Shown here one piece after another: positions 8,601-51,349 of a DNA stretch of 64,000 nt. The DNA comes from a virus (Duplodnaviria > Heunggongvirae > Uroviricota > Caudoviricetes). The notes under the pieces were generated by a model. It worked only from the letters and a program-made list of their open reading frames with translations. It made no database searches and had not been told where the DNA came from. The translations under genes and the position numbers were made by a program. Positions within the stretch are counted from its first letter, which is position 1. Each line of letters opens with the position of its first letter. Location: the IMG/VR virus record IMGVR_UViG_3300025858_001097; one strand, written 5' to 3'.

Positions 8601-9372
8601 TGGTGTTATATGCTGACAAATTGGATATATTATGCCAATTTCCATTAGCTATAGATGTTATTCCTGTGTATATGCCAAAAAATTCAGGATTCCCCCATTC
8701 CTCTATTTTTAATATACCACCATTCCAACTATTTAACCAGTATCCTAAATCTTGACCGTTACCGTCAACATCGTTTATTGTAAAACCTGTTATCGTTCCT
8801 AAATCTGTTATACTGGCGCTACAACATCCACTATCAGGATATGTTTCACCTGTAAAAGTCCATAATCTTGTTGCTCCACCATATCCACCATCCAATCCAG
8901 ATGTACCAGATGAACCAAAACCAGATGTACCACTTGATCCTGTTAAACCACTAGTGCCTGAAGATCCTGTTTCACCGCTACTTCCACTTGTCCCTGAAGT
9001 GCCGCTCGTACCACTAGTTCCTCTGCCGCTTGTTCCACTTGTGCCGCCAGTGCCACTTGTGCCTCCAGTTCCACTAGTTCCACCTGTTCCGTCTCTACCA
9101 CTACTTCCGTTTGTTCCGTCTCTGCCACTCGTACCGCTGGTTCCATCTGCTCCGCTTGATCCAAAGAAAACTCCATCAACACCCGATGTACCATCTTTAC
9201 CAGATGTGCCGGAAGATCCAGATGCTGAAGTTCCTCCAGTGGTTATATAATGCCACGTGCAATCTTCAAATTTTTCCCATAAACCTACTAAATCTCTACC
9301 GAGGTATATATGACCGGTATCTGGACAACCAATGTCATTAGGATTTATAAGCTGGATTTTTTTGAAACTCAT
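5602..9372 (-). CDS. collagen-like fibre protein 1
   Basis: 1256 aa. It has the conserved N-terminal MSFKKIQLI(N/D)P..IG.P..GHIYLG domain shared with the genes at 15766 and 30764, and two Gly-X-Y (G-T-S / G-S-S) blocks. The C-terminal half carries YadA-head / Hep_Hag-like 14-residue repeats (NTAIG..AL..TTG). Confidence 0.8.
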   Translation of the reverse strand: MSFKKIQLINPNDIGCPDTGHIYLGRDLVGLWEKFEDCTWHYITTGGTSASGSSGTSGKDGTSGVDGVFFGSSGADGTSGTSGRDGTNGSSGRDGTGGTSGTGGTSGTGGTSGTSGRGTSGTSGTSGTSGSSGETGSSGTSGLTGSSGTSGFGSSGTSGLDGGYGGATRLWTFTGETYPDSGCCSASITDLGTITGFTINDVDGNGQDLGYWLNSWNGGILKIEEWGNPEFFGIYTGITSIANGNWHNISNLSAYNTNGNLVEGKQYIISFLPAGGQGQSGTSGSSGVDGNFYGTSGTSGKDGNFLGSSGTSGSGSSGTSGSGSPGSSGTSGTSGIGSSGTSGLSYGTSGSSGTSGFLPLIGDNLEVIFRDTGATYGYNTDSGFTFDPDTNVLTLMSSTLRYANGSEGEDKILKSDANGYSSWINIMTGSTDVMDRTFDLTISASTLSVVPYANKKGSDPLYAYFYITGNTTTLKPSYTNPIALDGVLNTAGVNLYTSSDIPNLSTELNINPTGWTLGTNWVNSGGGIYTHSAGALSAISTTITATSGRRYLISWTVGGASTYTFKSEVYAYVGTVKSNPKQNIIITSADLTANTTGSVTVQIEVPSGASGTISDISIKELDPSTAAIRAPLIHTTVTGIGLEARSAFTPNNLGVGTNSLRFSATGSTSNTAFGASALENLTYGYSNTAIGTNSLKNITTGVFNLAVGTESLYTSTTGDYNVALGPLALRLLTYGYSNTAVGHSALNKLTTGSENIGIGLGSGFNLTTGTSNVIIGVYAGSLISTAANNTLIGYNAAYNLSSYNNVAIGYTSLRLATTGGANVAIGSNAGSDITTGNDNTIVGHSAAGGSTGGYNTVLGQNAGVYQPSYSVTGRTNLTTDSYLTLLGRGASKDSTSALTNSTAIGYDTKVMESNSVVVGNYDIRKTEIRGNEEVLRFDTLELDSFTNSALTSGTSWSATGDMALTGDKGTYTHSTGVGSITQTSANFARSILPNRWYRLNYSFVHSAGTIITGFINSSFLGYAYELIFTQDVSKTYTFYIKTPATAVGDFTINMASTYTSGTGIVTIDDISFREVTGGDLFVNNKITGGGASVFYQLDPANTGNTIHFLDTKNDITDSGVTLLSIRNSGNTRVDINSEGMSNFYGGHSTTDIDKKGNINAYESTNSNNLSVIHLQTSGNTDKAFTTLRGNFITNQNLVDSGNLTNFTGLTDTTINFPTIGSPGYKLERMAKISVYDDALGNYYEGWIPLYTYLEAP
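8322..9237 (-). repeat. Gly-X-Y collagen-like 9-bp coding repeats (two blocks) of fibre protein 1
   Basis: GGN-ACN-AGN periodicity; coordinates approximate. Confidence 0.7.
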
Positions 9373-9635: not shown

Positions 9636-11759
9636 TTATTGTGTTAATAGTGCTCTAACAATTATTCCAGCAGGAAGTGTCGTTGCAGTATATCTAATAT
9701 AATTTCCAACATTATCTGCCGATGAACTCCAAGTATTCCAGTTAGTTCCATCTGTAGAATATTGCCAAGTACCACTACCAGATGCTACAACAGTATCATC
9801 TAAAATTAATCCATTAGTTGCCGCATTATACATTCTTATTCTTAAATTTGGTATATTTGATCCCCAAGCTGTTGATTGACGATAAGCAAATATTCTATTT
9901 GTAACACTAGATTTATTTACACTTGGCGTATAATGAGAATCTGTATTAGAATCTTCATAAACAACTGACATTGAGTATATTCTAGATGGAATGCACCAAG
10001 TTCCTAGAACCTTAAATTTTATTTTAAATTGTATTGAATCTGTTCCCCCAACACTTGTCAAATCGCCATCATTACCCAACAATGTCCATGTTCCACCACT
10101 TGATTCAAATCCTGTTGTTCTATAATAAACATCAAAATCTTCTGTAGGACAACCAAAAGTTAAGTCTCCTAATTGTCTGGTCGAGTTTACATATAATCTA
10201 TAAAATTTGACACAACCAGTCGTATTTAATATGGGTGTAGTTACAAACGAACCGAAATCATCGGCCCATCCTCTATGAGGTTTCACGGGTATCGCATATA
10301 TTTGATTCAATGCTGCGGAAGTACCATTACGACTAATATATAAATATCCAGATTCTGTATAAAGAGATACCATAGTTCCGTTTGTCGTTGGGTGTATTGG
10401 AGCACTGTTGTCAGCTGTAGATTGATCTGTTTGAAGATCATTTGCGAGGAATACGCGTTCGAACGGATCTGATGTTGTTTGATATGTTGTACAATATGAA
10501 CGACCAGCAGCCGCTCCAGATAAGAAAAGCTTATCAGTCAAATCCCCCCACTCAACTCCTGTAAAAGTTGATACAGTATATGTTGCGGTGCCTCCAGGTG
10601 GAACTTCAACCATAGAATCTGTAATAAAATTAGTTGAACCATTTGTTATTGTGCTTAAATCACTTCTATAAACCCTGGATGTTGTCACAAAATATAAAGA
10701 TTTTACACCTGATGCTACACCATGCTTTAATGTTGCTATTCTGCCATTGTTTGTAACAATAATAGTTCCAGTTAAAGCTGATGCGATCGTTCCTGTTTTA
10801 AATTGAAAAGCTGTTGTATCTTTACCTGTCGTGGGTGATAGTGACGCTCTAATATTATAAACATAATATTGATAACCGTTTGCAGAAACCGTACCGTTCA
10901 TTGCATAACAAAGATGTGTAGTATATCCACTTTTAGTATCTAATGCGCATCCCCAAGCTGTTGTCATTGTTACTGAAGCAGCATCTGCTAGCCAATACAA
11001 TGCTCGAAGATTGTCCGTATTTGCGGTGAGCGTGAATGTTAAACCTCCAGATTGAAATGTGTCTCTATTTAATCCTTTCACAAGGAATAATCCACTGTTT
11101 GTTGATGTTGCACTTGTGATTGTCATGACTACTCTTAATTCTTCCATAACATACGGGGTTCCACTTGGATAAACACCCGCACCAGTTGATAATGTTAAAC
11201 CGGTATCACTATTAATTGGTGTAGTTGTTGGATTTGACATTTCATACCAAGTTGTTATTTGTGCTGGATCAGTGCTTCCAAAACCTATACGAGCCCCAGC
11301 TGCCATTCGATCTGTAACCCATTGTGTTCCAGTTCCTTTCACAGTTGTTCCATCAACTTCAACAGTACCAGTTGTATAAGCAACATAATCCATACGAAAA
11401 CCTTTTACTGTTAAGTTACCACCAGGTCCAGTCAATGTTATAAACCCTTTATAATTAAATAAATTTTGAAATTTGTCATATTCATACATGACAACAACTC
11501 TTGTTGCTGCTGCTAATGCGATGCCTGCTAAAAATACCCAATCTATTGTATCACTCCAATGTATAACAAAGGGATATCCAACTGCGTTAGCTGTTGGAGC
11601 TTCCATTGGTCTTGCAATAGCAAGAGGAACAGTGCTCACATACCAATCGGCGGGCGTTGTGCCCGTGTTTTGTATAATTTGTGGTCCTATATAAGTCGTT
11701 GTTCCTGTATAGGTTGTTGATGTTGTACCATTAAAAATATGTTCTATTACGTTTTTCAT
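9636..11759 (-). CDS. Thr/Ser-rich beta-rich protein, putative fibre or receptor-binding component
   Basis: 707 aa. Its start codon overlaps the stop of fibre protein 2 (TAATG), suggesting translational coupling. No collagen repeat. Confidence 0.6.
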   Translation of the reverse strand: MKNVIEHIFNGTTSTTYTGTTTYIGPQIIQNTGTTPADWYVSTVPLAIARPMEAPTANAVGYPFVIHWSDTIDWVFLAGIALAAATRVVVMYEYDKFQNLFNYKGFITLTGPGGNLTVKGFRMDYVAYTTGTVEVDGTTVKGTGTQWVTDRMAAGARIGFGSTDPAQITTWYEMSNPTTTPINSDTGLTLSTGAGVYPSGTPYVMEELRVVMTITSATSTNSGLFLVKGLNRDTFQSGGLTFTLTANTDNLRALYWLADAASVTMTTAWGCALDTKSGYTTHLCYAMNGTVSANGYQYYVYNIRASLSPTTGKDTTAFQFKTGTIASALTGTIIVTNNGRIATLKHGVASGVKSLYFVTTSRVYRSDLSTITNGSTNFITDSMVEVPPGGTATYTVSTFTGVEWGDLTDKLFLSGAAAGRSYCTTYQTTSDPFERVFLANDLQTDQSTADNSAPIHPTTNGTMVSLYTESGYLYISRNGTSAALNQIYAIPVKPHRGWADDFGSFVTTPILNTTGCVKFYRLYVNSTRQLGDLTFGCPTEDFDVYYRTTGFESSGGTWTLLGNDGDLTSVGGTDSIQFKIKFKVLGTWCIPSRIYSMSVVYEDSNTDSHYTPSVNKSSVTNRIFAYRQSTAWGSNIPNLRIRMYNAATNGLILDDTVVASGSGTWQYSTDGTNWNTWSSSADNVGNYIRYTATTLPAGIIVRALLTQ

Positions 11760-14700
11760 TATATTTTTTTAATTTTTAGAAAATAATATAATTTTGTTAT
11801 ATCAGTCGCAGAATTGACATAAAATTCTATCAAATCTCCGGATGTAATGTTTGTTGACCAACTCGCGAGAGAATAATCACTATTTTTTATTTGATTCGTT
11901 AATGTTGGATAATTTCCTGCCGTTATTCCTGTAAATATCGGATAATCAGAGTAATTACTTTTTCTAATATCAACTGCGCAACTCCCAGAAATACTTGCAA
12001 ACATTGTCCAACTATACATGACACAATCATAATTCATTTGTTTAAACCCCTTTGAACCAGTTGTTATAACATTTGATCCATTATCGATTATGAAACCTAT
12101 TGTATCATATTCTGTTGAACTAACGCCTGAACTACCAGAGTTTCCACTGGAACCACTGGTGCCAGAACTACCCGGAGATCCAGTTCCTGATGTTCCACTG
12201 GTGCCAGAACTACCCGGAGATCCAGTTCCTGATGTTCCACTGGTTCCGCCAGTTCCACTAGTTCCACCACTACCTGTTAAACCACTAGTTCCTGATGTTC
12301 CACTAGTCCCGCCTACACCACTCGTGCCACTAGTACCACTGATACCTGAAGTACCTGAAGTTCCACTACTACCTTGCGCTCCACTAGTGCCGCTAGTTCC
12401 TCCTGTACCACTGGTACCACTGATACCTGAAGTACCTGAAGTTCCACTACTACCTTGCGCTCCACTAGCGCCGCTAGTTCCTCCTGTACCACTGGTCCCT
12501 GAAGTGCCTGACGTTCCCGATGTGCCTGAAGTGCCGCTTGTTCCTGATGAACCATCTCTTCCACTACTTCCACTGGTTCCTGATGTCGGTGAATTGGTTT
12601 GATAATATGTATTACCAGAACTATCTACAACTAGATATCTAGATAAACCTGAAGTTGATGTTATTCCAGATATAACTAAAGTATTTGTTACCAATTTACC
12701 ATTACCATCAACAGACATAACATTACCATCTATGCCGTTTTGAATTTCAAGTACTGTATCCGAATCTGAGTTTGAACCTCTCTTGATAGTAAGAGCCCCC
12801 AATGTTGAATTCGTCAATATTTCTGGAACACCTGTTGAATTATTATAAGCTATTTGAAGATTGACTGTTGATAATCCAATACCGCCCATACCAATCACAT
12901 CACCAAATTTTGAAACCAATAAAAATTTAGCAGTGGATGGATCTGTTAAATTTGTACAATTACTCTGAACTGTTAAAATACCTATTAATATAGCATCTGT
13001 TTGAAAATTAGAAAATGTAACAAATGATTCAGTTAACGCATTGGATAAAGCCGTTGCAAAATCAGAATATACTGTTTGACCATATTGAATTCTAAATTTT
13101 CCATTTTGAGTCAAAAATATTCTCTGATTAGTTGATTGTTTTGCTGGCGATCCTACCAAAGTAACAACACCACCGTCATCCCAATAATTGGGTATCACTT
13201 GTGTCCTATCTGTATCCGAACCGCCTAATTGTGTTCTATATTGGAAAGTTGTAGGACTTTGTGATGATATACTAATACTACTTGGATTCAATACACTATT
13301 CGAAAAACCAATACCCAAACCCCACAATTTACCACCAGTAGTATTAAATGTCAAACCAGTATTTGGTGATGGATATATTCCCTGATTAATCAAATTAATA
13401 GGTGTCCATACATCTCTAAGTTGAGATAATGGTGAAACATCTAAATCAGGTTGATCCAACGAATAAAGCAAATATGATTTAGTTGGATGGGCTAATTTGC
13501 CCAAAAATATAGATTGTCTTCTATTTGTAGGTGATAATTCTGTTGAACTTTGAGCTATAGTTCCATCAGATTGTAAATAAACCCAAGTTTCCGTTGATGT
13601 TGATATATTTGTTGCTGTTATTCCAGTCTGACCTAAAAAATGAACATATAGAGCTGTTGGATTTATTGGATCAGTTGTATTATCAATAATCCAACCTTTA
13701 ACTTCACTTACATTAAATGTAATACCAGTTGTAGTGGGTGGATTAGAATTCAATGTTAATCCTGAAAAATAAAATAATCCAGTTGAATTAACATTACCCA
13801 ATAATATGTTTCTTTCAATATCGGTTAAACTAATTTCAGTATCTTCGTTCTTAACGTTAATATATATTTTTCCCGTTGTTGGTGAATTATCAATGACTTT
13901 ACCTATATAATTACTTCTTGATGAATATTGTAAACTTGATGATCCAACTATGAATCCGCCTGCTACTGTATCAGATAAATATAAATTATCACCATTTGTA
14001 TATCCCGATAAATTAAGATCATATATTTTTCCGTTTGTAATAACAAACCCTACACCACTTAAAGATATATCTTCTGATACCATTCCTAAAACAACATCAT
14101 CTAGATTACTTGCAATAGCCTTATCAACACAAGGTATTCCATTAATAGTCGAACCTCCAGTTAATTTAACGACAGTGGATTTCGTTAATACGTAAGAATT
14201 TGGATTATAGACTTTGATTACTAATTGTCCACCAAGAAGAATTGTTGATTGTAATGTATCAGATTGAGGATAATAAACTATACCTCCTTTATTATTATCA
14301 TAAACCATCCTGCCAGTAAGACCAGTAGACGGTAAAGTAATTCCTGTCCAAAAATCAAAATATCCAACATCAGATACATTGCCATCATGTAAAGATAATG
14401 TAGTTTCTGTGAATGTCAAACCCGATTGGGATATAGCACCATCTGGCGTTCCATCCGAAGTCAGCACTCTTGTTAAAGTTGGATATTGTACTGTTGTGAA
14501 ACCGTGACCTGAACTACCCGATGTGCCTGAAGAACCTGAAGTACCTGTCGTTCCGCTTGTTCCAGAAGTTCCTGATGTGCCTGAAGTGCCACTAGTTCCA
14601 GAAGAACCTGATGTTCCGCTGGTTCCACTAGAACCTGACGTTCCACTTGTTCCTGAAGTGCCACTAGTTCCAGAAGTGCCTGATGAACCATCTTGTCCAG

Positions 14701-15766
14701 AAGTTCCGCTAGTCCCGATAGTTCCTGAAGTACCTGAAGAACTTGAAGTTCCACTAGTTCCAGAAGTACCACCAGTTCCACTAGTTCCACTACTACCTTG
14801 TTTTCCAGAAGTACCACTTGTTCCACTAGTTCCATCGGTACCACTTGTTCCACTACTACCAAGAAAACTTCCATCTTTTCCACTAGTTCCACTACTACCA
14901 AGAAAACTTCCATCTTTCCCAGATGAACCACTAGTGCCGTCAGCACCAACTCCTCCTGTTCCGAAAGGAACATATGATATTAAATAACTTTCATTATTTG
15001 TTAGACTACCATTCGAGCTAATATCTGTAACTCCACTAATTTGATAAACATATAAATATGGAGTCGTGTTTATAGTAATACCACTTATTATATTATATAA
15101 TCCAAATATTGAGGGGTTATTGTGCAATTCTATTTTTAACATGCCGCTTGTCCAAGTATCCAGCCAATTGCTTTGATCAACATTATCTGCATCAACTTGA
15201 CTTATTCTAAAATATTCTGTAGCACTAAAGTGATCATTTCCGCTGTAGAAATATTTTGAAATTGGTATTGGTTGTGTCGAATCATATACCCATCTTCTAG
15301 ATGCTCCACCATATCCTGAGAATCCACTAGTTCCGCTACTACCAAAAAAATCTCCATCTACTCCCGAAGATCCACTTGTTCCAGTAAAACCACTAGACCC
15401 ACTAGACCCACTAGTACCTTTTCCGCTAGTTCCACTGGTTCCAGTTGTACCACTGGATCCTGTTTTTCCGCTAGTTCCACTAGTTCCTTCTTTTCCACTT
15501 GTTCCGCTCGATCCATCCTTTCCGCTACTTCCCGAGAAACCACTGGTTCCACTTGATCCGAAAAAACTTCCATTCAATCCATCCTTACCAGAAGATCCAC
15601 TTGTTCCAGCCGTTCCACTTAAAGTAATACCAGATGCTATATAAGTTATAGTTCCATCGGATTCTTTTTGCCATAAACCATAGTCATCGTGACCTAGATA
15701 AATAAAACCAACCTCGGGATTACCAATAACTGTTGGATCAATTAATTGTAATTTCTTAAAACTCAC
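11759..15766 (-). CDS. collagen-like fibre protein 2
   Basis: 1335 aa. The N-terminal domain MSFKKLQLIDPTVIGNPEVGFIYLG is conserved and there are three Gly-X-Y blocks. The track start appears to be GTG, whereas its paralogues use ATG. Large beta-rich central domain. Confidence 0.8.
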   Translation of the reverse strand: MSFKKLQLIDPTVIGNPEVGFIYLGHDDYGLWQKESDGTITYIASGITLSGTAGTSGSSGKDGLNGSFFGSSGTSGFSGSSGKDGSSGTSGKEGTSGTSGKTGSSGTTGTSGTSGKGTSGSSGSSGFTGTSGSSGVDGDFFGSSGTSGFSGYGGASRRWVYDSTQPIPISKYFYSGNDHFSATEYFRISQVDADNVDQSNWLDTWTSGMLKIELHNNPSIFGLYNIISGITINTTPYLYVYQISGVTDISSNGSLTNNESYLISYVPFGTGGVGADGTSGSSGKDGSFLGSSGTSGKDGSFLGSSGTSGTDGTSGTSGTSGKQGSSGTSGTGGTSGTSGTSSSSGTSGTIGTSGTSGQDGSSGTSGTSGTSGTSGTSGSSGTSGTSGSSGTSGTSGTSGTSGTSGTTGTSGSSGTSGSSGHGFTTVQYPTLTRVLTSDGTPDGAISQSGLTFTETTLSLHDGNVSDVGYFDFWTGITLPSTGLTGRMVYDNNKGGIVYYPQSDTLQSTILLGGQLVIKVYNPNSYVLTKSTVVKLTGGSTINGIPCVDKAIASNLDDVVLGMVSEDISLSGVGFVITNGKIYDLNLSGYTNGDNLYLSDTVAGGFIVGSSSLQYSSRSNYIGKVIDNSPTTGKIYINVKNEDTEISLTDIERNILLGNVNSTGLFYFSGLTLNSNPPTTTGITFNVSEVKGWIIDNTTDPINPTALYVHFLGQTGITATNISTSTETWVYLQSDGTIAQSSTELSPTNRRQSIFLGKLAHPTKSYLLYSLDQPDLDVSPLSQLRDVWTPINLINQGIYPSPNTGLTFNTTGGKLWGLGIGFSNSVLNPSSISISSQSPTTFQYRTQLGGSDTDRTQVIPNYWDDGGVVTLVGSPAKQSTNQRIFLTQNGKFRIQYGQTVYSDFATALSNALTESFVTFSNFQTDAILIGILTVQSNCTNLTDPSTAKFLLVSKFGDVIGMGGIGLSTVNLQIAYNNSTGVPEILTNSTLGALTIKRGSNSDSDTVLEIQNGIDGNVMSVDGNGKLVTNTLVISGITSTSGLSRYLVVDSSGNTYYQTNSPTSGTSGSSGRDGSSGTSGTSGTSGTSGTSGTSGTGGTSGASGAQGSSGTSGTSGISGTSGTGGTSGTSGAQGSSGTSGTSGISGTSGTSGVGGTSGTSGTSGLTGSGGTSGTGGTSGTSGTGSPGSSGTSGTSGTGSPGSSGTSGSSGNSGSSGVSSTEYDTIGFIIDNGSNVITTGSKGFKQMNYDCVMYSWTMFASISGSCAVDIRKSNYSDYPIFTGITAGNYPTLTNQIKNSDYSLASWSTNITSGDLIEFYVNSATDITKLYYFLKIKKI
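12046..12616 (-). repeat. Gly-X-Y coding repeat block (C-terminal) of fibre protein 2
   Basis: 9-bp periodicity; approximate bounds; further blocks at about 14566-14956 and 15331-15622. Confidence 0.65.
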
Positions 15767-16575: not shown

Positions 16576-17415
16576 TTATGTTCCTGTCAAAGTAACGACT
16601 AATTGATTGACAGTCCCTGACGCAGAAGCTATATACAAGGCTAACCAATCCCCAGCAGAAACGCTAGATCCAGTTTTTCCGCTTGCTCCACCCGTTGTTG
16701 CTACTATATCCGATCCAAACAAACTCGATGTAGATCCAATAGCTCCATAATATATATTAAAAGTGGCACTCGTATTATTTTGAACATAAGCGTTAGCTAC
16801 AGTCGGAGCATAAGACGCATTTAATCTGGGGCCTAATATAACTCCAGGTCCCGGCGAAGACACTACCCAAGTAAAACTTCTTTCGGGGTATGTGCCAGAT
16901 GTGCCTGATGAACCAGGACTACCAACGCCAGATGTTCCTGATGAACCAGGACTACCAACGCCAGATGTGCCACTTGTTCCGCTTGTTCCAGTAGTTATAT
17001 TAGTTACTTCTTTCACAACATTTCCATCCAATACCAATTTTGTACCGTTATCAGCTACAGTATCAACATTTGTCATAGTGAGAGTCGAACCAGTCATCCA
17101 TATATTAGGAATATAAGATGTATTTGTCGCTGAATCCCAATAAAAATCTGGATCTGTAGCAAATGAATTATCTATAGTCTGCCATGTTCCAACTCCATTA
17201 GCATCTGAAGTTAAAACATATCCATTGGATTGTGATCCGTCCACTATTCTAATAGTGCCGCCAGAAACAACAATTTTTTGGTCTATCGACCAAGCAGCAG
17301 ATGTTACACCAACACCAATTCTTTTATTGGTTTTGTCAATCATAACAACATCCTCTAACATTAAAGATGTGTTACCAGTTTGAGTATATTCTGTATAAAA
17401 TTTGGTTTGTGACAT
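16576..17415 (-). CDS. small collagen-motif protein (279 aa)
   Basis: Central GTSGTSGTSGVGSPGSSGTSGVGSPGSSGTSG flanked by beta-rich domains; contains a 33-nt tandem duplication. Confidence 0.6.
   Translation of the reverse strand: MSQTKFYTEYTQTGNTSLMLEDVVMIDKTNKRIGVGVTSAAWSIDQKIVVSGGTIRIVDGSQSNGYVLTSDANGVGTWQTIDNSFATDPDFYWDSATNTSYIPNIWMTGSTLTMTNVDTVADNGTKLVLDGNVVKEVTNITTGTSGTSGTSGVGSPGSSGTSGVGSPGSSGTSGTYPERSFTWVVSSPGPGVILGPRLNASYAPTVANAYVQNNTSATFNIYYGAIGSTSSLFGSDIVATTGGASGKTGSSVSAGDWLALYIASASGTVNQLVVTLTGT
16895..16971. repeat. 33-nt tandem direct repeat (2 full units plus a partial third)
   Basis: ccagatgtNcctgatgaaccaggactaccaacg appears twice and is then restarted; it encodes VGSPGSSGTSG twice. 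Confidence 0.7.
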
Positions 17416-17453
17416 TTAAAAATTTCTATTTTTACTATATATAATTTTTTTTG

Positions 17454-18638
17454 TTATGGAAAACATACAGCAACCGGTGTGCTTTTATTTGTAACTGAAT
17501 TTATTCCTAATTCTCCAAAAGTATTTTCCCCCCAAGACCAAGCTTTATTATTTTTATCTAAAGCCAAAGTATTATAACCACCGCTTATGAAATTGAAAGT
17601 ATGATTTCCACAGACAGCGACCGGAGTTGATACACTTCCAGACGACGTGTTCGCGCCTAACTGTCCGTCGTTATTCCATCCCCAACACCACGCTTTTCCG
17701 TGATTATCTATCGCCATAGAATGATAATTACCAGCTTCTATATCGCAAAATGTATGACCTCCACAAACAGCCACCGGCGTACTTCTATTAGTTGATGTAT
17801 TATCTCCCAAAGTACCAACATTGAAATTTGACCCCCATGCCCAAGCTTTTCCATGATTGTCTATCGCTAATACGTGATGTTGTCCACAAGATATTTGACA
17901 AAATGTATGCGCTCCGCAAACAGCCACTGGTGTACTTCTATCTGTGGAAATATTATTACCTAAACATCCATACCCATTGTATCCCCATCCCCAAGCTTTG
18001 CCATGATTGTCTACGGATGACGAATGACGTTGTCCGCAATCTATTAGACAGAATGTATGAGTCCCGTAGACTGCAATTGGTGTGCTTTTACATACCACAG
18101 TGTTATCTCCCAATTGTCCATAATTATTATCCCCCCATGACCACAATTTACCATTATATCCTAATCCTAAAGTGTTATGACCTTCACTAGTATATCTTCC
18201 TCCTACTTTTATATAACAAAAAGTATGATCCCCGCAAACAGCCACTGGTATAGATTTTCCATTGGTAGTATTATCTCCCAATTGTCCATAACTATTATTC
18301 CCCCAAGTCCAAGCTTTCCCGTCGGTATCTATGGCTGCGCTGTGTATCCCAGTGTCTATGGCAATAAAATTGCGATTACCAAAAACGGCTCGTGGAATAC
18401 ATTTATCACCGTGTTCATTAATGCCTAATTGTCCATAACTATTATCTCCCCAAGTCCAAGCTTTGTTATAAACATCTAAAGCTATGCTATTAAAAGTTCT
18501 ACCAACAATACTTACAAAATAATCAGTTGATCCAGAATCTGTTAAATAAATTAAACAAGGAGACGATATTTCATACGCTATTTTACTATTTCGTAAAACT
18601 ATTCTATAAATGGCCATAAAAAACAGATTTTTTATCAT
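17454..18638 (-). CDS. RCC1-repeat beta-propeller protein
   Basis: At least six WxWGxNxYGQLG repeats. Confidence 0.7.
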   Translation of the reverse strand: MIKNLFFMAIYRIVLRNSKIAYEISSPCLIYLTDSGSTDYFVSIVGRTFNSIALDVYNKAWTWGDNSYGQLGINEHGDKCIPRAVFGNRNFIAIDTGIHSAAIDTDGKAWTWGNNSYGQLGDNTTNGKSIPVAVCGDHTFCYIKVGGRYTSEGHNTLGLGYNGKLWSWGDNNYGQLGDNTVVCKSTPIAVYGTHTFCLIDCGQRHSSSVDNHGKAWGWGYNGYGCLGNNISTDRSTPVAVCGAHTFCQISCGQHHVLAIDNHGKAWAWGSNFNVGTLGDNTSTNRSTPVAVCGGHTFCDIEAGNYHSMAIDNHGKAWCWGWNNDGQLGANTSSGSVSTPVAVCGNHTFNFISGGYNTLALDKNNKAWSWGENTFGELGINSVTNKSTPVAVCFP

Positions 18639-18662
18639 TTTTATATATAAAAAATCTGTTTT
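18620..18662 (-). terminator. A-tract/T-tract flanked hairpin between the epimerase and RCC1 genes; the loop carries TATATAT and the RCC1 start codon
   Basis: aaaaaacagatttttt / aaaaaatctgtttt form a perfect stem of about 14 bp with a 15-nt loop atcatttttatatat. It fills the whole intergenic spacer. Confidence 0.45.
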
Positions 18663-18683
18663 CTTAAAAACGAAATAATAGGA

Positions 18684-19568
18684 TTATATTAGTTTTTTAT
18701 AATATTCTGCTGTTTTTCGCAAACCTTCCTCCAAAATTGTTACGGGCGTCCAAGATAAAATGTCTGATGATTTTTTAAAATCAATATTAACAGATTCAAA
18801 ATTTTTACCGTTTTCTTTGAATATTATTTTTGAATTTGTTTTTATAACTTTCAATGTGGTATTAGCTAATTCTTTTATTGATGTAAGTGTTTGATTTCCA
18901 ATATTTAATACAGTTTCAGTAGTTTCTGTATTCATAAATTTTATAAAAACATCCAAAAAGTCGTCTATGTAACAAAAAGAATCTATTTGATTACCATCTC
19001 CAAAAATTATTAAATCCTCATTTTTTAAAGATTTCATTATAAATTGCGGTATAACTCGCGAATCTCCAACTGCCATATTCGGACCATATATACTTTTTAG
19101 TCTTGATATTTTTACTTTTGTTGAAAATTTCTTTCTATATTCACTACAAAGAGTTTCAGCTACTCTCTTTCCTTCTGTATAACAAGAATTTATGCCAGTG
19201 TGATCATATTCGAAAACTCTTACTGTTGAAGAATGCATTATTGGAATATCCAATTTTGTAGCTAATTCTAACGCATTTCTTGTTCCATAAATATTGGTTT
19301 CTAATGTTTTTAGAGGATCTTTGCGATAATGATCTGGGGCGGCAGGGCTTGCCAAATTATATATTTGATTAATATCCGATATGTTTATTTCCTTACGTAT
19401 ATCATGATTTATTAAATGAAAATTTTCATTTTTTGTGAAATTGATGACATTATTTTTGGAACTGGTTGAAAAATCATCCAAGCAATAAACCGTGTTGCCT
19501 TGATATAACAAACTCTTACAAAGATTAGAACCTATAAAACCGCTACCTCCTAAAACTAAAATTTTCAT
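18684..19568 (-). CDS. UDP-glucuronate decarboxylase (UDP-xylose synthase, UXS/ArnA-type extended SDR)
   Basis: GGSGFIGSNL Rossmann motif. IYNLASPAAPDHYRKDPLKTLETNIYGTRNALELA and YTEGKRVAETLCSEY closely match UXS1 signature segments. Confidence 0.75.
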   Translation of the reverse strand: MKILVLGGSGFIGSNLCKSLLYQGNTVYCLDDFSTSSKNNVINFTKNENFHLINHDIRKEINISDINQIYNLASPAAPDHYRKDPLKTLETNIYGTRNALELATKLDIPIMHSSTVRVFEYDHTGINSCYTEGKRVAETLCSEYRKKFSTKVKISRLKSIYGPNMAVGDSRVIPQFIMKSLKNEDLIIFGDGNQIDSFCYIDDFLDVFIKFMNTETTETVLNIGNQTLTSIKELANTTLKVIKTNSKIIFKENGKNFESVNIDFKKSSDILSWTPVTILEEGLRKTAEYYKKLI

Positions 19569-19571
19569 AAT

Positions 19572-20507
19572 TTAACAACTCATATATTTTGACAATTTTT
19601 TATCTTTGAATTTTCCATCCGGATCTTTATATAAATAAGGTGTCCAAAATCCAAATTCATTAACAATTAAAAACATACCATATCTTTTGGCTATATTATT
19701 TCTGTAACGAAAATCTTTATATGAAGCAAGACTTTCTGGATTGCCCATATAAGGCTTTCCTTCATTTAAGACGTATCTATTCATCATTATTTTTCTAGAT
19801 TTACCCTTCAATTTTTCTAAGTGATAAGAAGATATATCATCTATTTTTTCTATGCTTAATCTGCGACGGAGCGGACAAGCCATTCCGCATTTTGGGCAGA
19901 ATTGTTCCATCTGCTCACGATAATCTTTGCGTGTGCGTTTCCACCAACCATGTTCAACTTCCCAACCATCGGGTCCATCATACAACATAGCGAAAGCTGC
20001 GGCCATTTCGCAGAAATAAGCCCCCTTTGGATTAATAGAAGCACTCCAAGATTCCTGCGCCCAACAATGATCTATATAATACCACATATCATCTTTATCC
20101 TTAATCACTTCATCTATAGCCACAAGAGCTGGATGATGATATATGTCATCTCGAGTGTGATCGTTTATAAAAATATGACCGAATGTTCTTACAATAACTT
20201 CACGATAATGTTCGTATCCTTTTGGAAGAGTTGTCCAAAGACCTAATTGTTCCTTTGGAAATTTTGATGCTGCATAATCACAAAATTTTTCAAACTCTGG
20301 ATGAAGGATTGGTTCGCCTCCTTGAAAACCAACCATTTTTTTAAAACCTTCAAAAGAATCTATTGCTTCTTTGAATTTTTCAAATGAAAGATAGAAAACT
20401 TTTCCATGACCGACAAATCTTGTACAATTACTACATAAATTACGACAACAATTTGTAATTTCGATTTGAATTGTATCTTGATCCCTCAAATTTATCATAA
20501 TCCCCAA
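19572..20507 (-). CDS. radical SAM enzyme with a C-terminal Cys cluster
   Basis: CRNLCSNC (CxxxCxxC) and a GGEPILHPE motif; C-terminal CPKCGMACP cluster. Confidence 0.6.
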   Translation of the reverse strand: MGIMINLRDQDTIQIEITNCCRNLCSNCTRFVGHGKVFYLSFEKFKEAIDSFEGFKKMVGFQGGEPILHPEFEKFCDYAASKFPKEQLGLWTTLPKGYEHYREVIVRTFGHIFINDHTRDDIYHHPALVAIDEVIKDKDDMWYYIDHCWAQESWSASINPKGAYFCEMAAAFAMLYDGPDGWEVEHGWWKRTRKDYREQMEQFCPKCGMACPLRRRLSIEKIDDISSYHLEKLKGKSRKIMMNRYVLNEGKPYMGNPESLASYKDFRYRNNIAKRYGMFLIVNEFGFWTPYLYKDPDGKFKDKKLSKYMSC

Positions 20508-21181
20508 GATTTTTTTCTATCTATGAGTCTTACTACTTTTTCTTCGACTGGCATGGCATAATTATGATATAAGAAGCTGAGATAATCCATGTCATATTTA
20601 GCGAAGAAATCTTTAAACATCACGAATTTTAATCCAAATTTTGCGATGTTTCTTGACAACACATAATCGTCAATAAGACTTCTTGGAGTTACTCCATTGT
20701 CCGATTCTGATTTTGTTGGGAATATATTATTAGCTGCTTCATCGGGAGTTAGATCATCTAAAGGTCTCCATAGATCTATGCACCAATCGCTGGCTATTGT
20801 AAACCAATTGCAACTTCCGATATTCCTACCATCTCTTAGAAAATATTCATCGTAACGCCAACGAAGTGATGCCATATCCATCGCTGAGTGAGCAACCGTG
20901 TCTTTTGACATTTGTGTAGTTATATCAAATATATCTGGATGTATTAAAGCATCACAATCTACATAAATATTCCAATCATTTTTCATTTCTTTTCCGAGTT
21001 CGTATATTTGCATTTTTTCATATGTTATATACCACTCTGGAAATTTACGCTCTTTTATGACATAAAAATCAGCTCCTATTTTATGAGCGTATTTTTTTAT
21101 ATATGGATATGTAATATCTGTTATATCCTTTGAATATTCATCGTTAATATTCAAAGTGAAAATTGTTTTCTTTAATCTCAC
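20495..21181 (-). CDS. putative GT-A fold nucleotide-sugar transferase
   Basis: IYVDCDALIHPD DxD-like motif in a context resembling nucleotide-diphospho-sugar transferases; weak. Confidence 0.4.
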   Translation of the reverse strand: MRLKKTIFTLNINDEYSKDITDITYPYIKKYAHKIGADFYVIKERKFPEWYITYEKMQIYELGKEMKNDWNIYVDCDALIHPDIFDITTQMSKDTVAHSAMDMASLRWRYDEYFLRDGRNIGSCNWFTIASDWCIDLWRPLDDLTPDEAANNIFPTKSESDNGVTPRSLIDDYVLSRNIAKFGLKFVMFKDFFAKYDMDYLSFLYHNYAMPVEEKVVRLIDRKKSWGL

Positions 21182-22008: not shown

Positions 22009-22067
22009 TTTATTTTTTATTTTTTATTTTTATATATTAAAAAATATATTTTTTTAATTCTATTCTA

Positions 22068-25000
22068 TTATATTTCAGTGTTGTTAGCAGAAACATAGGA
22101 GTATTCAATGACATCAACAGTATATTTCAATTGAAGTTTATAACTTGGCGATGGATCCCATCCAGTAGCACTCCTTAAATTATTTTTTAATAATAGATAC
22201 GGTTTACTGCTATATATTAGAGCTTCCGCATCTATATCATTAGGACCTATTTGTCCTTGTGTATCTATCGATGCGTGACGACCCGGAGATGGTGTTTCTG
22301 AATTATACTTAACCCAATACCCCGAATGTTGAACTGTTTTAGTATCTGTTACATAATTAGTATAGCTACCAGTTTGATCTACAAAGACGTTGAAACGATA
22401 TTCTCTCATCGCTGCCAATGAATAATCGATTGCTGTCATTTGTGAAGTAGTGCCAGTATCCATTAAGTGATCCATATAGTAGTAACAATTAACCTTAACA
22501 GAGAATCCACTAGTTCCATTTCCACCTGTAACTCCGTGTGTTGTGGATAAGTCTATTTTACTTTGTGAAGCCCAAGCTGTGGCCCAACTAAACGGAGGTA
22601 TATCATTTACATAATAATACGTTACTCCAATTCCAGAGGTTCCACTACTGCCTGTTATTCCTGATGTTCCACTAGTTCCTGAAGTGCCACTAACGCCACT
22701 AGTTCCACTGGTGCCATCATTTCCAGATGTTCCGCTTGTTCCTCTAGCTCCAGATGTTCCGCTAGTTCCACTACTGCCTTGTTTTCCAGATGTTCCACTA
22801 GTTCCACTAGTGCCACCTGTTCCACTGGTTCCTGATGTACCTCCAGTTCCACTAGTTCCACTACTACCTGTTATTCCAGCGGTTCCGCTAGTTCCTGATG
22901 TACCGCCAGTGCCGCTAGTTCCACTACTGCCTTGTTTTCCAGATGTTCCACTAGTTCCACTTGTACCGCCTGTGCCTGAAGTACCACCAGTGCCATCATG
23001 TCCAGATGTTCCGCTTGTTCCACTACTACCATCATTTCCAGATGTTCCACTTGTACCGCCAGTACCATTTGTTCCTGATGTACCTCCAGTTCCACTAGTT
23101 CCACTACTACCTTGTCTTCCAGAAGTACCACTGGTTCCACTTGTACCGCCTGTACCATTTGTTCCTGATGTACCTCCAGTTCCACTGGTTCCGCTACTAC
23201 CATCATTTCCAGATGTGCCTGAAGTACCACCTGTTCCGCTAGTTCCAGAAGTACCACTACTACCATCATTACCAGATGTTCCACTGGTTCCGCTACTACC
23301 ATCATTTCCAGATGTTCCGCTAGTTCCACTACTACCATCATGTCCGGATGTTCCACTAGTTCCACTAGTTCCACCTGTGCCATTTGTTCCTGATGTACCA
23401 CCAGTTCCACTAGTTCCACTACTGCCTTGTTTTCCAGAAGTACCACTTGTGCCACTAGTTCCACCCGTACCATTTGTTCCTGATGTACCACCAGTTCCAC
23501 TGGTTCCACTACTTCCATCATGTCCTGATGTGCCTGAAGTTCCTCCAGTACCACTAGTTCCACTACTGCCATCATGTCCAGATGTTCCTGAAGTTCCACC
23601 CGTGCCTGAAGTACCGCTTGTACCACCAGTGCCATCATGTCCAGAAGTACCACTAGTTCCACTACTGCCATCGTGACCAGACGTACCTGAAGTACCACTT
23701 GTTCCACTAGTTCCTGATGTACCACTTGTTCCTGATGTACCACTACTGCCATCGTGACCAGACGTACCTGAAGTACCACTTGTTCCGCTTGTACCACTAC
23801 TTCCATCATGTCCTGATGTACCTGAAGTTCCTCCAGTACCTGAAGTTCCACTACTTCCATCATGACCAGATGTGCCTGCTGTTCCTGAAGTACCACCAGT
23901 ACCATTGGTTCCTGAAGTTCCGCCCGTTCCTGATGTACCACTACTACCATCATTTCCAGATGTTCCACTAGTTCCACCAGTTCCGTTTGTTCCTGAAGTT
24001 CCACCAGTTCCACTAGTTCCACTACTCCCTGAAGTACCGTTTGTTCCAGAAGTGCCTGAAGTGCCTCCAGTTCCACTTGTACCACTACTACCTTGTTTTC
24101 CAGAAGTACCACTTGTACCACTACTACCAGAAGCACCTGAAGTGCCTGAAGTTCCTCCAGTTCCACTAGTTCCACCTGTTCCATTTGTTCCTGATGTCCC
24201 ACCAGTTCCACTAGTCCCACTACTTCCTGTTAAACCTGAAGTTCCGCCAGTTCCTGAAGTTCCTCCTGTTCCCGAGGTACCACTACTACCTTGTTTTCCA
24301 GAAGTTCCGCTAGTTCCTGAAGTTCCTCCTGTTCCGCTGGTACCTGAAGTTCCACCAGTGCCACTAGTTCCACTACTACCATCGTGTCCAGATGTTCCAC
24401 TTGTTCCACTAGTTCCACTACTTCCTGAAGTTCCTCCAGTTCCACTAGTTCCACTGCTTCCAGAAGTTCCACTAGTCCCAGAAGTACCACTAGTACCTCC
24501 AGTACCACTAGTTCCACTACTACCTTGTTTTCCAGAAGTTCCGCTGGTTCCTGAAGTACCGCTTGTGCCGCCTGTTCCGCTAGTACCTGAAGTACCACCT
24601 GTACCACTAGTTCCACTACTGCCATCGTGTCCCGAAGTACCACTAGTACCTCCAGTTCCGCTAGTTCCACTACTACCATCATGTCCAGATGTTCCACTAG
24701 TTCCACTGCTACCTGAAGTTCCTGAAGTACCATTTGTTCCACTTGTACCTGAAGTTCCACTTGTACCACTACTACCTTGTTTTCCAGAAGTACCATTTGT
24801 ACCACTTGTACCACTACTACCTGAAGTTCCACCAGTTCCAGAAGTACCGCCAGTTCCATTTGTTCCTGAAGTGCCTCCAGTTCCGCTAGTTCCACTAGTT
24901 CCACTAGTTCCATCATGACCCGATGTTCCCGAAGTTCCACCTGTACCAGATGTTCCTGATGTCCCGCCTGTTCCGCTTGTTCCACTACTTCCATCATGAC

Positions 25001-28000
25001 CCGATGTTCCTGAAGTGCCACCCGTGCCTGAAGTACCACCTGTACCAGATGTTCCTGATGTCCCGCCTGTTCCGCTTGTTCCACTACTTCCATCATGACC
25101 CGATGTTCCTGAAGTGCCACCCGTGCCTGAAGTACCACCTGTGCCACCAGTTCCACTAGTTCCACTACTTCCAGAAGTTCCACTAGTTCCACTACTTCCA
25201 GAAGTTCCGCTTGTTCCACTACTACCATCGTGGCCAGAAGTTCCACTAGTTCCAGCAGTTCCACTTGTGCCAGAAGTGCCACCTGTTCCGCTTGTACCAC
25301 TACTTCCATCATGTCCAGATGTACCTGATGTTCCACTTGTTCCGGAAGTACCACCTGTTCCACTTGTACCACTACTTCCATCATGTCCAGATGTACCTGA
25401 TGTTCCACTTGTTCCTGCTGTACCTGATGTTCCACTTGTACCGCCTGTACCTGAAGTTCCACTACTACCTGATGTTCCACTCGTGCCACTAGTTCCCGAA
25501 GTACCACTACTACCTTGTTTTCCAGAAGTACCACTTGTACCACTAGTTCCACTACTTCCTGAAGTTCCACCAGTTCCAGAAGTACCACCTGTTCCATTTG
25601 TACCTGATGTACCACTTGTCCCGCTAGTTCCGCTAGTCCCACTACTACCATCATGTCCAGATGTTCCAGAAGTTCCAGAAGTACCACCTGTTCCGTTAGT
25701 TCCTGAAGTACCACCTGCTCCACTAGTTCCACTACTTCCATCATGACCTGAAGTTCCAGAAGTACCACTTGTCCCGCTAGTTCCGCTAGTCCCACTACTA
25801 CCATCATGTCCAGATGTTCCTGAAGTTCCAGAAGTACCACCTGTTCCACTAGTTCCACTACTTCCATCACGACCTGAAGTTCCTGAAGTGCCGCCTGTTC
25901 CGTTAGTTCCTGAAGTACCACCTGTTCCACTAGTTCCACTAGTTCCGCTTGTTCCACTACTACCACTAGTACCGCCAGTTCCGCCTGTACCAGAAGTACC
26001 ACTTGTTCCCGATGTGCCACTGCTACCATCATGACCGGAAGTTCCACTAGTTCCACTTGTTCCACTAGTTCCACTACTACCATCATGTCCAGAAGTACCA
26101 CTAGTTCCTGAAGTACCACCTGTTCCACTAGTTCCTGAAGTGCCGCCTGTTCCACTTGTACCACTGCTACCATCAACGCCCGAAGTTCCAGAAGTTCCTC
26201 CTGTACCTGATGTTCCATTTGTCCCACTTGTGCCTCCAGTGCCTGAAGTACCACTACTACCAGATGTGCCTGAAGTTCCTCCAGTACCACTAGTTCCACT
26301 ACTACCTTGTTTTCCAGAAGTACCACTAGTTCCACTACTTCCAGAAGTTCCTGAAGTGCCAGAAGTTCCCCCAGTGCCACTTGTTCCTCCAATACCACTA
26401 GTTCCACTACTTCCAGAAGTTCCTGAAGTGCCAGAAGTTCCCCCAGTGCCACTTGTTCCTCCAATACCACTAGTTCCACTACTTCCATCATAACCACTTG
26501 TTCCCGAAGTTCCTCCCGTACCTGATGTTCCTGAAGTACCACCTGTACCACTAGTTCCACTACTTCCATCATGACCACTTGTTCCAGAAGTGCCACTGCT
26601 ACCACTTGTACCGCTTGTTCCGCCAGTACCAGAAGTGCCACCTGTTCCACTAGTTCCACTAGTACCGCTACTACCATCGTGTCCTGATGTACCACTTGTT
26701 CCTGAAGTTCCTCCAGTACCACTAGTTCCGCTAGTTCCTGAAGTTCCACTACTTCCATCGTGACCAGAAGTACCACTAGTTCCACTAGTTCCGTTTGTTC
26801 CTGAAGTTCCACCAGTTCCACTACTTCCTGTCGCACCTGATGTTCCAGAGGTTCCGCCGGCACCGCTAGTTCCTGATGTACCGCCAGTTCCACTAGTTCC
26901 ACTACTTCCTCCTGTACCTGATGTGCCACTAGTTCCAGAAGTTCCACTCGTACCACCAGTTCCACTAGTTCCACTACTACCTTGTTTACCGGAAGTACCA
27001 CTTGTACCACTACTTCCAGAAGTTCCCGAAGTGCCTGAAGTTCCTCCAGTACCACTTGTTCCTCCAGTACCACTAGTTCCACTACTTCCTGTTGCGCCAG
27101 AAGTTCCAGATGTTCCGCCTGTTCCAGATGTACCACTAGTTCCACCTGTTCCAGATGTACCGCTACTCCCATCGTGACCTGAAGTACCTGATGTACCTGA
27201 AGTACCACTTGTTCCTCCTGTTCCTGAAGTTCCTCCAGTTCCGCTAGTCCCACTACTTCCTGAAGTTCCGCTAGTCCCACTTGTTCCTGAAGTTCCACCT
27301 GTGCCATTTGTTCCACTAGTACCACTTGATCCTGATACTCCACTTGTTCCACTAGTTCCTCCAGTTCCACTAGTTCCACCTGTTCCACTAGTTCCAGAAG
27401 AACCAGACGTACCACTTGTTCCGCTAGTTCCCGAAGTACCACTACTACCTTTTGCGCCCGAAGTTCCACTAGTTCCAGATATACCACTAGTTCCACCTGT
27501 ACCTGATGTACCGCTCGTGCCGCCAGTTCCGCTAGTCCCGCTACTTCCACTTGTACCACTACTACCAGATGTTCCATTAGTTCCTGAAGTACCACCAGTG
27601 CCATTCGTGCCACTCGTACCTCCAGTTCCTGAAGTACCACTACTACCTGATGTTCCACTAGTTCCACTACTTCCAGAAGTTCCACTAGTTCCACTAGTTC
27701 CAGAAGTGCCACTGCTACCTGATGTACCGCTAGATCCAGAAGTACCACTAGTTCCTGATGTACCTGAAGTTCCACTTGTTCCTGAAGTACCGCCTGTTCC
27801 ACTAGTACCGCTACTTCCTTGGGCTCCACTAGTTCCACTGGTTCCACTTGTACCCCCAGTACCGCTTGTTCCTGATGTCCCGCCTGTTCCACTAGTTCCA
27901 CTACTACCTTGAGCCCCACTAGTTCCTGAAGTACCACTGCTACCTTGTGCTCCGCTGGTTCCACTTGTACCACCAGTTCCGCTAGTTCCACTACTACCTT

Positions 28001-30764: not shown

Positions 30765-30771
30765 TTAAAAA

Positions 30772-30813
30772 GAAAAACGGTTTTTTATACCTATATATAA
30801 AAAACCGTTTTTC
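30772..30813 (-). terminator. perfect 15-bp inverted repeat (A5-CGG-T6) with a TATATA-containing loop, between the pncA-like gene and the fibre 3 start
   Basis: gaaaaacggtttttt [atacctatatat] aaaaaaccgtttttc; T-runs on both strands; ends 9 nt before the fibre 3 ATG. Confidence 0.5.
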
Positions 30814-30841
30814 TTTTTGGTGTGGAGTTGTTATGAAGTTA

Positions 30842-31432: not shown

Positions 31433-31433
31433 A

Positions 31434-31799: not shown

Positions 31800-31819
31800 T
31801 TTACAAATATATTAATTTT

Positions 31820-33636: not shown

Positions 33637-33702
33637 AAGAACTTTTTATTCTTATATATTAAAAACTAAAAATCACTTTTAACCTTTTCATTGTGGTCAT
33701 TT

Positions 33703-34128: not shown

Positions 34129-34131
34129 ATG

Positions 34132-45456: not shown

Positions 45457-45584
45457 AAATGAAAATTAATTTTTAATATATAATGCAAATTGCGGATTAT
45501 AAATTGTTTTACAAAATTAATAAATTTAATTTAGATATTAAAAAATTTTATTAATTTTGTAAAAATAAAAGAATAAAAATATTT

Positions 45585-51347: not shown

Positions 51348-51349
51348 TA

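Follow-up and report, generated by a model that had tools for sequence, protein, structure and literature searches.

A promoter-like motif within a terminator-like hairpin between the epimerase and RCC1 genes of an uncultured huge phage

Gene layout at the epimerase-RCC1 spacer

We analyzed the spacer between a sugar epimerase gene and an RCC1-repeat gene in a 64,000-nucleotide (nt) stretch of tailed-phage DNA (IMG/VR record IMGVR_UViG_3300025858_001097), which is referred to below, at its full length, as the window. The spacer contains an inverted repeat, hairpin 1, whose loop and upper stem carry a short AT-rich motif resembling a promoter. The flanking genes and the elements between them are as follows (aa, amino acids).

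17454 to 18617, minus strand: RCC1-repeat protein gene (Pfam RCC1/WD40_RLD), with the corrected start ATG 18617-18615 (MAIYRIV...), 387 aa
18620 to 18635, minus strand: 3' arm of hairpin 1, ATAAAAAATCTGTTTT, which together with TT at 18619-18618 makes a T6 run
18636 to 18646, minus strand: loop of hairpin 1, 11 nt, ATATAAAAATG, holding the rest of the motif core and the ATG at 18638-18636
18641 to 18650, minus strand: promoter-like motif copy TTATATATAA, of the family TTT[A/T]ATATATA[G/A]AAnnAAAAA
18647 to 18662, minus strand: 5' arm of hairpin 1, AAAACAGATTTTTTAT, ending in TTAT, the 4 nt with which the promoter-like motif opens
18684 to 19568, minus strand: nicotinamide adenine dinucleotide (NAD)-dependent sugar epimerase/dehydratase gene, with homologs labelled UDP-glucuronate decarboxylase

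The epimerase gene, which ends with the stop codon TAA at 18686-18684, is the last of an upstream run of five co-directional genes (21670-18684), the final two encoding a radical-SAM protein and the epimerase. Sugar-modification enzymes are encoded upstream of hairpin 1, and RCC1 followed by glycine-rich proteins downstream. Between about 4.7 kilobases (kb) and 38 kb of the window, all called genes of at least 60 aa lie on the minus strand.

The window has a G+C content of about 29 to 34%, and its gene content is phage-like. One of its proteins is 73.6% identical to its counterpart in LR756501/LR756503, a 735-kb uncultured phage, and has more distant relatives in phages of 634 to 642 kb and in Cellulophaga phages. 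The order of the motif-bearing spacers is shared by the window and positions 410 to 460 kb of LR756501. The window derives from a huge, uncultured phage that is a relative of LR756501. Near-identical contigs were found in several metagenomes, and a nucleotide search with positions 17000-21000 against a phage collection returned no match. A match to the DUF805b RNA and frequent TAnnTTTG boxes are present in the window, and both are features that we take to be associated with Bacteroidota, pointing to a Bacteroidota host. Al-Shayeb et al. (2020, PMC7162821) assigned their largest phage genomes, LR756501 among them, to the Mahaphage clade, for which Bacteroidetes hosts were predicted.

A perfect inverted repeat after the epimerase gene

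Read 5' to 3' on the sense (minus) strand, the spacer that follows the epimerase stop codon is TCCTATTATTTCGTTTTTAAG AAAACAGATTTTTTAT ATATAAAAATG ATAAAAAATCTGTTTT TT ATGGCC. Hairpin 1 begins 21 nt after the stop codon and is a perfect 16-base-pair (bp) inverted repeat (18620-18635 and 18647-18662) around an 11-nt loop. A preliminary description of this DNA, made from the sequence alone, had reported a perfect stem of about 14 bp with a 15-nt loop; the perfect pairing was confirmed, but the stem is longer and the loop shorter than stated. The TATATA box noted there is present (TTATATATAA at 18641-18650) and spans the loop and upper stem, and a reverse-strand ATG is indeed found in the loop (18638-18636); among the in-frame ATGs of the RCC1 open reading frame (ORF) it comes first. 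On the sense strand the sequence TCTG is followed by a T6 run (18623-18618) that ends 1 nt before the RCC1 ATG at 18617, compared with T4 on the opposite strand. When the sense strand was folded with RNAfold, hairpin 1 reached -16.4 kcal/mol (z = -4.7), and none of 200 shuffled sequences was as stable. The antisense strand gave -13.8 kcal/mol, so that the sense fold is 2.6 kcal/mol more stable than the antisense fold.

The window contains just three perfect repeats that reach 14 bp or more and have loops of 3 to 20 nt, each of them between genes. They are hairpin 1, a second hairpin at 30.8 kb (hairpin 2, described below), and a canonical terminator at 62461-62491. No perfect repeat of at least 14 bp arose in 100 windows simulated with a first-order Markov model. 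At intergenic composition, one such repeat arose in 12 of 500 simulations and two in none of the 500. Hairpins 1 and 2 are real and not chance.

Start codon of the RCC1 gene

The closest ortholog of RCC1, P0015, is 62% identical to the window protein and has the N terminus MAVYRIV; it starts with MAVYRIVLRNNKIAYE, corresponding to MAIYRIVLRNSKIAYE of the window as read from the ATG at 18617 (MAIYRIV). Its contig, L018, has the same local order, from the epimerase gene through RCC1 to a next-gene spacer resembling that of the window. The epimerase-RCC1 spacer is conserved in L018 and the loop ATG is retained, but a 1-nt length difference shifts it out of frame with the RCC1 ORF, and a stop codon follows after 11 codons. 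The promoter-like motif ends 23 nt before the ATG at 18617, compared with 2 nt before the ATG at 18638. Motif copies next to start codons mostly lie 15 to 26 nt away, which fits the former and not the latter. On identical sequence, public gene calls disagree, some giving 387 aa and others 394 aa, and the 7-residue extension of the longer product, MIKNLFF, is the translated 3' arm of hairpin 1. Judged by these comparisons, the loop ATG at 18638 is not the RCC1 start, and the true start is the ATG at 18617, giving a protein of 387 rather than 394 aa. The preliminary description had placed the start codon in the loop while naming MAIYRIV as the competing start; the N terminus of P0015, the frame shift in the ortholog, and the motif spacing rule out the former and select the latter.

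The loop ATG also bears on the proposal, made in the same description, that an attenuator gates read-through from the epimerase gene into the RCC1/fibre genes. Such gating would depend on translation of a leader peptide or on an alternative structure. The short in-frame MIKNLFF reading frame does begin in the loop, and in a fold of the whole spacer an outer helix pairs the spacer just 5' of the hairpin with the early RCC1 coding region. However, the frame of the loop ATG differs in the ortholog, so that no leader peptide is conserved. The folds contain no competing antiterminator pairing or other real alternative, with the hairpin as the dominant structure, and an Rfam search gave no match at hairpin 1. 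Attenuation is therefore highly improbable.

Further homologs of the two flanking genes were considered. The RCC1 homologs at L001, L002, and L021 to L024 lie in unrelated, tightly packed phage contexts and are uninformative on the hairpin, and epimerase homologs with 56 to 58% identity (L082 to L086) are followed by other genes and carry no motif. Scanning viral contigs with the hairpin 1 loop sequence yielded only a chance match, in a giant-virus bin (L019). A degenerate pattern for the RCC1 N terminus had 0 matches among the metagenome contigs of a collection without this lineage.

The promoter-like motif

The motif T[AT]ATATATA[AG] has 24 matches in the window, compared with 3.3 expected, and none of 100 shuffled windows reached 24. 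Twenty-one of the matches are intergenic, and nearly all of these are oriented toward the next gene, the exception being the antisense reading of the palindromic copy at 18641. Thirteen copies end 15 to 26 nt before a called start codon. For three more (4868, 15787, and 62414), a start 15 to 20 nt downstream was read from the flanking sequence, and four others lie 93 to 138 nt upstream of the next start or only 5 nt from it. The divergent spacers hold two opposed copies each (3932 minus and 4085 plus; 60753 minus and 60782 plus). A logo of 33 copies from the window and LR756501 reads wwTTT[A/T]ATATATA[G/A]AAnnAAAAA and has no -35-like block. Leave-one-out scoring of the flanks against this family gave 7.2 bits for the copy at 18641, which is mid-range for the family, and 5.0 bits for the copy in hairpin 2 at 30791. 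In-gene matches scored -9 to -15, and the antisense reading of 18641 scored -2.6. These scores place both hairpin copies within the motif family in the sense orientation only. The motif precedes each of three giant paralogous genes described below, as well as AMMECR1 and other nonstructural genes.

Enrichment of the motif was also found in LR756501, of which 250 kb were scanned. One 50-kb piece (L025) has 13 copies, compared with 2.0 expected, and four more pieces have 10 to 15 copies per 50 kb. The motif is weakly enriched in LR756502 (12 versus 4.7 expected) and not enriched in LR745206 (7 versus 7.2 expected), indicating that it is specific to a subclade. The simplest reading of this distribution is that the motif represents a phage-specific promoter class. 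Scanning about 50 window ORFs against Pfam turned up no polymerase or sigma factor that might recognize it, although no search was aimed at such a factor. The literature searched contained no promoter motif for this phage lineage and nothing directly relevant on a promoter inside a terminator loop or on a Mahaphage promoter motif; the promoter consensus of this Mahaphage subclade appears to be undescribed there.

The T4 late promoter, TATAAATA, is a single-block phage promoter without a -35 element. The motif is similar in being a short AT-rich block of TATA type near the start, with no conserved upstream block and with many copies before genes. However, it is longer, follows a different consensus (TTTWATATATAR plus a downstream A-tract), and is not confined to obviously late genes. 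Sigma-A promoters of Bacteroidota have TAnnTTTG at -7 and TTTG at -33. Here the likeness lies in the presumed host phylum, the short A/U-rich leaders, and the frequent lack of a Shine-Dalgarno sequence, whereas the motif family (TTTWATATATAR-AA-nn-AAAAA) lacks TTTG and does not match TAnnTTTG. Boxes of the host type TAnnTTTG, often TAATTTTG, are found upstream of nine other window genes and never together with the phage motif. Examples are the genes at 37538-38056, 44038-45456, 45585-46733, and 51350-52291. This suggests that the window may hold two promoter classes, a host type with TAnnTTTG and a phage type with the motif.

Only 4 of the 33 motif copies in the window and L025 lie inside a G/C-containing perfect stem of 11 bp or more. 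These are the window copies at 18641 and 30791 and the L025 copies at 12957 and 9696, and all four are of the TTATATATA variant. The remaining copies show pairings of 3 to 9 bp, mostly A/T, which come from the quasi-palindromic consensus. No further comparable stem around the motif was found in 200 kb more of LR756501 (four 50-kb pieces). The hairpin is thus an optional addition to the motif, and a genome-wide design of A-tract, core, and T-tract is not supported.

Hairpin 2 and its conservation

The recurrence of the hairpin design near 30.8 kb, which the preliminary description had pointed out, was confirmed by a second perfect repeat with the following features.

22068 to 30764, minus strand: giant collagen-like ORF downstream of hairpin 2, 2898 aa, with the N terminus MSFKKIQ
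30767 to 30818, minus strand: hairpin 2, with a 23-bp perfect stem, AAAAAGAAAAACGGTTTTTTATA / TATAAAAAACCGTTTTTCTTTTT, and the loop TATAGG
30791 to 30800, minus strand: promoter-like motif copy TTATATATAG within hairpin 2, 26 nt before the ATG at 30764
30842 to 31432, minus strand: isochorismatase/nicotinamidase-like gene, the last gene of an NAD-salvage-like run upstream of hairpin 2

The arms of hairpin 2 (30767-30789 and 30796-30818) enclose a 6-nt loop, and RNAfold gave -26.7 kcal/mol (z = -8.8). The hairpin starts 23 nt past the stop codon of the isochorismatase-like gene and ends 2 nt short of the giant collagen-like gene's ATG, with CCG followed by T5CT5 on the sense strand. It has four G·C pairs and was called by a terminator scan on both strands. 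Both hairpins stand at module borders, hairpin 2 at the change from NAD-salvage-like genes to the collagen-like giant.

To look for related sites, metagenomes were scanned with the motif plus the N terminus of the downstream giant protein as the key, not with the hairpin, and 37 loci were obtained. Besides the window, the hairpin 2 cassette precedes an orthologous MSFKK... collagen-like gene in three lineages (LR756501/L055/L029, L050, and L038). It follows an orthologous isochorismatase-like gene in three of the four lineages, and in L038 the same giant-gene family lies downstream. The ortholog stems fold into 24 to 28 bp with -25.9 to -29.5 kcal/mol (z = -8 to -10). The G/C core varies by lineage with the pairing kept (CGG/CCG, CCGA/TCGG, and CCAG/CTGG). 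Pairs were compared by walking outward from the T-run/A-run boundary; a MAFFT alignment was out of register between the arms. Across the four lineages, 6 of the 12 compared stem positions have changes on both sides that keep the pair, and the only pairing failures are single T·T mismatches in two lineages. On this comparison of arm sequences, the design of hairpin 2 is clearly under selection.

Pairs that depart from Watson-Crick rules are, read as sense RNA, always G·U and never A·C. In LR756501 and L050, the sense fold is more stable than the antisense fold by 4.0 to 4.4 kcal/mol. The sequence directly 3' of the stem is U-rich in every hairpin 2 ortholog. The G·U bias together with the sense stability points to a probable function in the sense transcript, i.e., in RNA coming from the upstream operon. 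These observations also bear on the earlier view of hairpin 1 as a working bidirectional terminator, which is not supported: all the genes from about 4.7 to 38 kb lie on the minus strand, so that there is no convergent transcription to stop, and the G·U pairs of the orthologs are sense only. The bidirectional shape of hairpin 1 seems incidental.

A function in sense RNA would equally suit a different role, in which the hairpin is an RNA-processing element of the RNase III type, so that polycistronic read-through RNA would be cleaved within the duplex, or a 3'-stabilizing element that would only shield the end of the upstream mRNA, and the embedded motif is still a promoter. The sense bias of the G·U pairs fits any function in sense RNA, and hairpin 2 and its orthologs form near-perfect duplexes of 23 to 28 bp, longer than usual terminators and long enough for RNase III. 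The resemblance to the RNase III hairpins of T7 lies in long intergenic duplexes between cotranscribed genes. However, T7-type sites usually have internal loops, which are absent from the perfect stems seen here, and the present stems have a promoter motif inside and a U-rich run directly after the G/C core in every copy, as in terminators. Hairpin 1, with only 16 to 18 bp, is also borderline for a duplex that RNase III would require (about 20 bp or more). We regard processing or stabilization as unlikely.

The same pattern of substitutions is informative on whether the inverted repeat acts in DNA, either as a cruciform or structure-dependent promoter of the N4 type, with the promoter core exposed in single-stranded form, or as a symmetric site lying over the promoter and bound as an operator by a dimeric regulator. 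AT-rich palindromes without mismatches are readily extruded under supercoiling, the loop and upper stem are exactly where the motif core lies in both hairpins, and all four hairpin-embedded copies share the TTATATATA variant. Promoters of the N4 virion RNA polymerase likewise have core bases in a hairpin loop, but their stems of 5 to 7 bp and loops of 3 nt are very different in dimensions from those found here. Moreover, a real stem surrounds only 4 of the 33 motif copies. The hairpin is dispensable and not present at all copies of the motif class, which argues against an N4-type hairpin promoter. An operator is opposed by arm sequences that differ between sites and orthologs while pairing is kept, and the deviations are G·T (four) and T·T, never A·C, which is the pattern of a sense RNA and not of DNA. 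Action at the DNA level is accordingly very unlikely.

A terminator-like hairpin overlapping a putative promoter

The reading that we favor, with a probability of about 0.55, is that the site is a terminator-like hairpin overlapping a phage promoter at an operon boundary. The compact terminator-promoter cassette envisaged in the preliminary description is broadly right as to the hairpin, its recurrence, the promoter-like motif, the position, and the T6 run, while the terminator function is a prediction. Both hairpins occupy the position of a terminator, downstream of a co-directional stop codon and with a U-rich tract 3' of the stem. We infer promoter activity, the position of the start, termination, and the polymerase or factor that reads the promoter from the features described above.

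In such an arrangement, TTATATATAA at 18650-18641 would be a single-block promoter copy with no -35-like block, unlike TAnnTTTG. Transcription would begin near the conserved A-tract 5 to 9 nt after the motif, which places the start either at the far end of the loop or within the first few bases of the 3' arm. RCC1 mRNA born from this promoter would carry the 3' arm only, as an unstructured A/U-rich leader of about 15 to 20 nt. Read-through RNA from the epimerase operon would contain both arms and would fold into a hairpin of 16 to 18 bp followed by U6; most likely it would be terminated immediately ahead of the RCC1 start, or at a minimum be blocked or processed there. A T-tract, ATATATA, and an A-tract already make the promoter consensus quasi-palindromic, and a promoter copy takes the shape of a terminator once a short G/C core (CAGA/TCTG in hairpin 1, CGG/CCG in the hairpin at 30.8 kb) and, outside it, an A-tract and a T-tract are added. 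As in symmetric intrinsic terminators with an A-tract, hairpin, and T-tract, a type often termed bidirectional, the element follows a stop codon, has G/C pairs next to the U-run, and has a mirrored A-tract. It differs from them in that the upper stem and loop are the promoter motif, the stem is AU-rich (two G·C pairs in 16 for hairpin 1) and long (23 to 27 bp for hairpin 2), and no convergent gene is there to use the second direction.

Several observations weigh against this reading. Intrinsic terminators usually have a stable stem, typically of 5 to 14 bp with several G·C pairs, and a short loop. By such textbook criteria hairpin 1 would be a weak terminator: G·C accounts for just 2 of its 16 pairs, its loop has 11 nt, and the terminator consensus scan did not call it. 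Stems of 23 to 27 bp, such as that of hairpin 2, exceed those of typical intrinsic terminators. Hairpin 1 was found in only one other lineage, L018 and four contigs identical to it. There the 5' arm is unchanged, but its pairing with the 3' arm includes one G·U pair and one U·U mismatch, and the equivalent of hairpin 1 has -6.9 kcal/mol and is not the minimum-free-energy fold. Because hairpin 1 is degraded in L018, selection for it is not demonstrated. The operons flanking hairpin 1 apparently share one motif class (copies at 22030 and 18641), which leaves no obvious need for temporal insulation at this site. In principle, the motif could also act at the RNA level instead of as a promoter.

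The degraded ortholog, with only two lineages to compare, would also be expected if hairpin 1 were functionless, that is, a by-product of the quasi-palindromic consensus and fortuitous flanks or of a recent local duplication. Many motif copies form A/T-only stems of 5 to 9 bp for free. However, even sequence of intergenic composition seldom yields a perfect repeat of 16 bp; the 12 of 500 simulations counted any repeat of 14 bp or more. We estimate the probability of the 7 extra complementary A/T-rich pairs beyond the consensus at about 4e-4 for each copy. The hairpin of like design at 30.8 kb is, moreover, clearly under selection. A functionless hairpin 1 is quite unlikely.

The terminator-promoter overlap may have a further consequence, which we advance tentatively and at well below even odds. 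If the transcription start splits the hairpin, about 45 nt could form a gate that admits only transcripts from the gene's own promoter and does three jobs. It would stop or process RNA from the upstream operon, silence translation of read-through RNA in a host that would require an open leader, and supply an unstructured leader for promoter-born mRNA carrying the 3' arm only. On the second point, the stem ends 1 to 2 nt before the start codon, and speculatively this would leave the start in read-through RNA poorly accessible. If this is true, RCC1 and the giant collagen-like fibre genes in a Mahaphage subclade would be under a hard-wired gate, with a phage-specific factor recognizing its promoter.

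The individual parts, a terminator-shaped hairpin and a single-block AT-rich promoter, are ordinary; their nesting is a compact variant and no new kind of mechanism. The nested promoter-in-terminator layout illustrates how tightly regulatory signals are packed, and it could serve as a small insulating part in Bacteroidota synthetic biology. The analysis also corrects the RCC1 annotation as given above and supplies a promoter consensus that can be put to use in an uncultured lineage of huge phages (that of the window and of LR756501), from which operon boundaries and two probable promoter classes may be predicted from sequence alone.

Other hairpins and genes of the window

Canonical GC-rich terminators were found on the minus strand at 48740-48775 (GTCCCTCAG...CTGAGGGAC plus T6) and at 62458-62494 (GGGAACCAAA...TTTGGTTCCC plus T6). 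About 35 nt beyond the latter stands a separate motif copy (62414), and here terminator and promoter-like motif are adjacent, not nested. After the giant ORF, at 22009-22067 on the minus strand, an A/U-only hairpin, AATTAAAAAA-ATATA-TTTTTTAATT, was read from the sequence; RNAfold pairs 9 bp of it. The T-tract of the promoter-like motif is its 3' arm, a weaker overlap of stem and motif. In another MSFKK paralog group (L028, L039, L049, and L051), a small conserved hairpin, TATAGAGA-N-TCTCTATA, comes after the motif and abuts the AAATG of the gene, with part of the motif as its 5' arm.

A 21-bp inverted repeat with 95% identity (45507-45527 and 45544-45564) has no U-run after it. It lies within a stretch of about 100 nt that extends from the plus-strand motif copy at 45474 to the ATG of a plus-strand gene at 45585. 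A similar start of this repeat sequence (gttttacaaaatta) occurs in the L025 piece of LR756501, downstream of the plus-strand motif copy at 30781. In the window, a 240-nt stretch with no called gene (1859-2098) holds TATCAGTTCCTTGA ... TCAAGGAACTGATA, a long inverted repeat whose loop measures about 30 nt.

The three giant paralogous ORFs are on the minus strand at 5602-9372, 11759-15766, and 22068-30764 and have in common the N terminus [M/V]SFKK[I/L]Q..P..IG.P..G.IYLG. In the 2898-aa giant, 82% of residues are in G-X-Y collagen-like triplets, with one run of 750. The G+C content of its ORF is 0.44 to 0.50, compared with about 0.26 to 0.37 for most of the remaining window.

The NAD-salvage-like run (30842-38056, minus strand) encodes a TonB-dependent-receptor-like protein (35457-37541), PEBP, a PnuC transporter of nicotinamide mononucleotide (NMN), a NadR-like NMN adenylyltransferase, and the isochorismatase/nicotinamidase-like protein. 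Genes for PRPP synthetase and PPK2 are near this run (region 50487-52291, minus strand). An HNH endonuclease gene adjoins an ATP-dependent DNA-ligase-like gene (47253-48664, minus strand). The Rfam DUF805b RNA motif is located at 63566-63601 on the minus strand, directly 5' of an SPFH/Band-7 gene (62511-63545), and scored 41.8 bits, above the gathering score.

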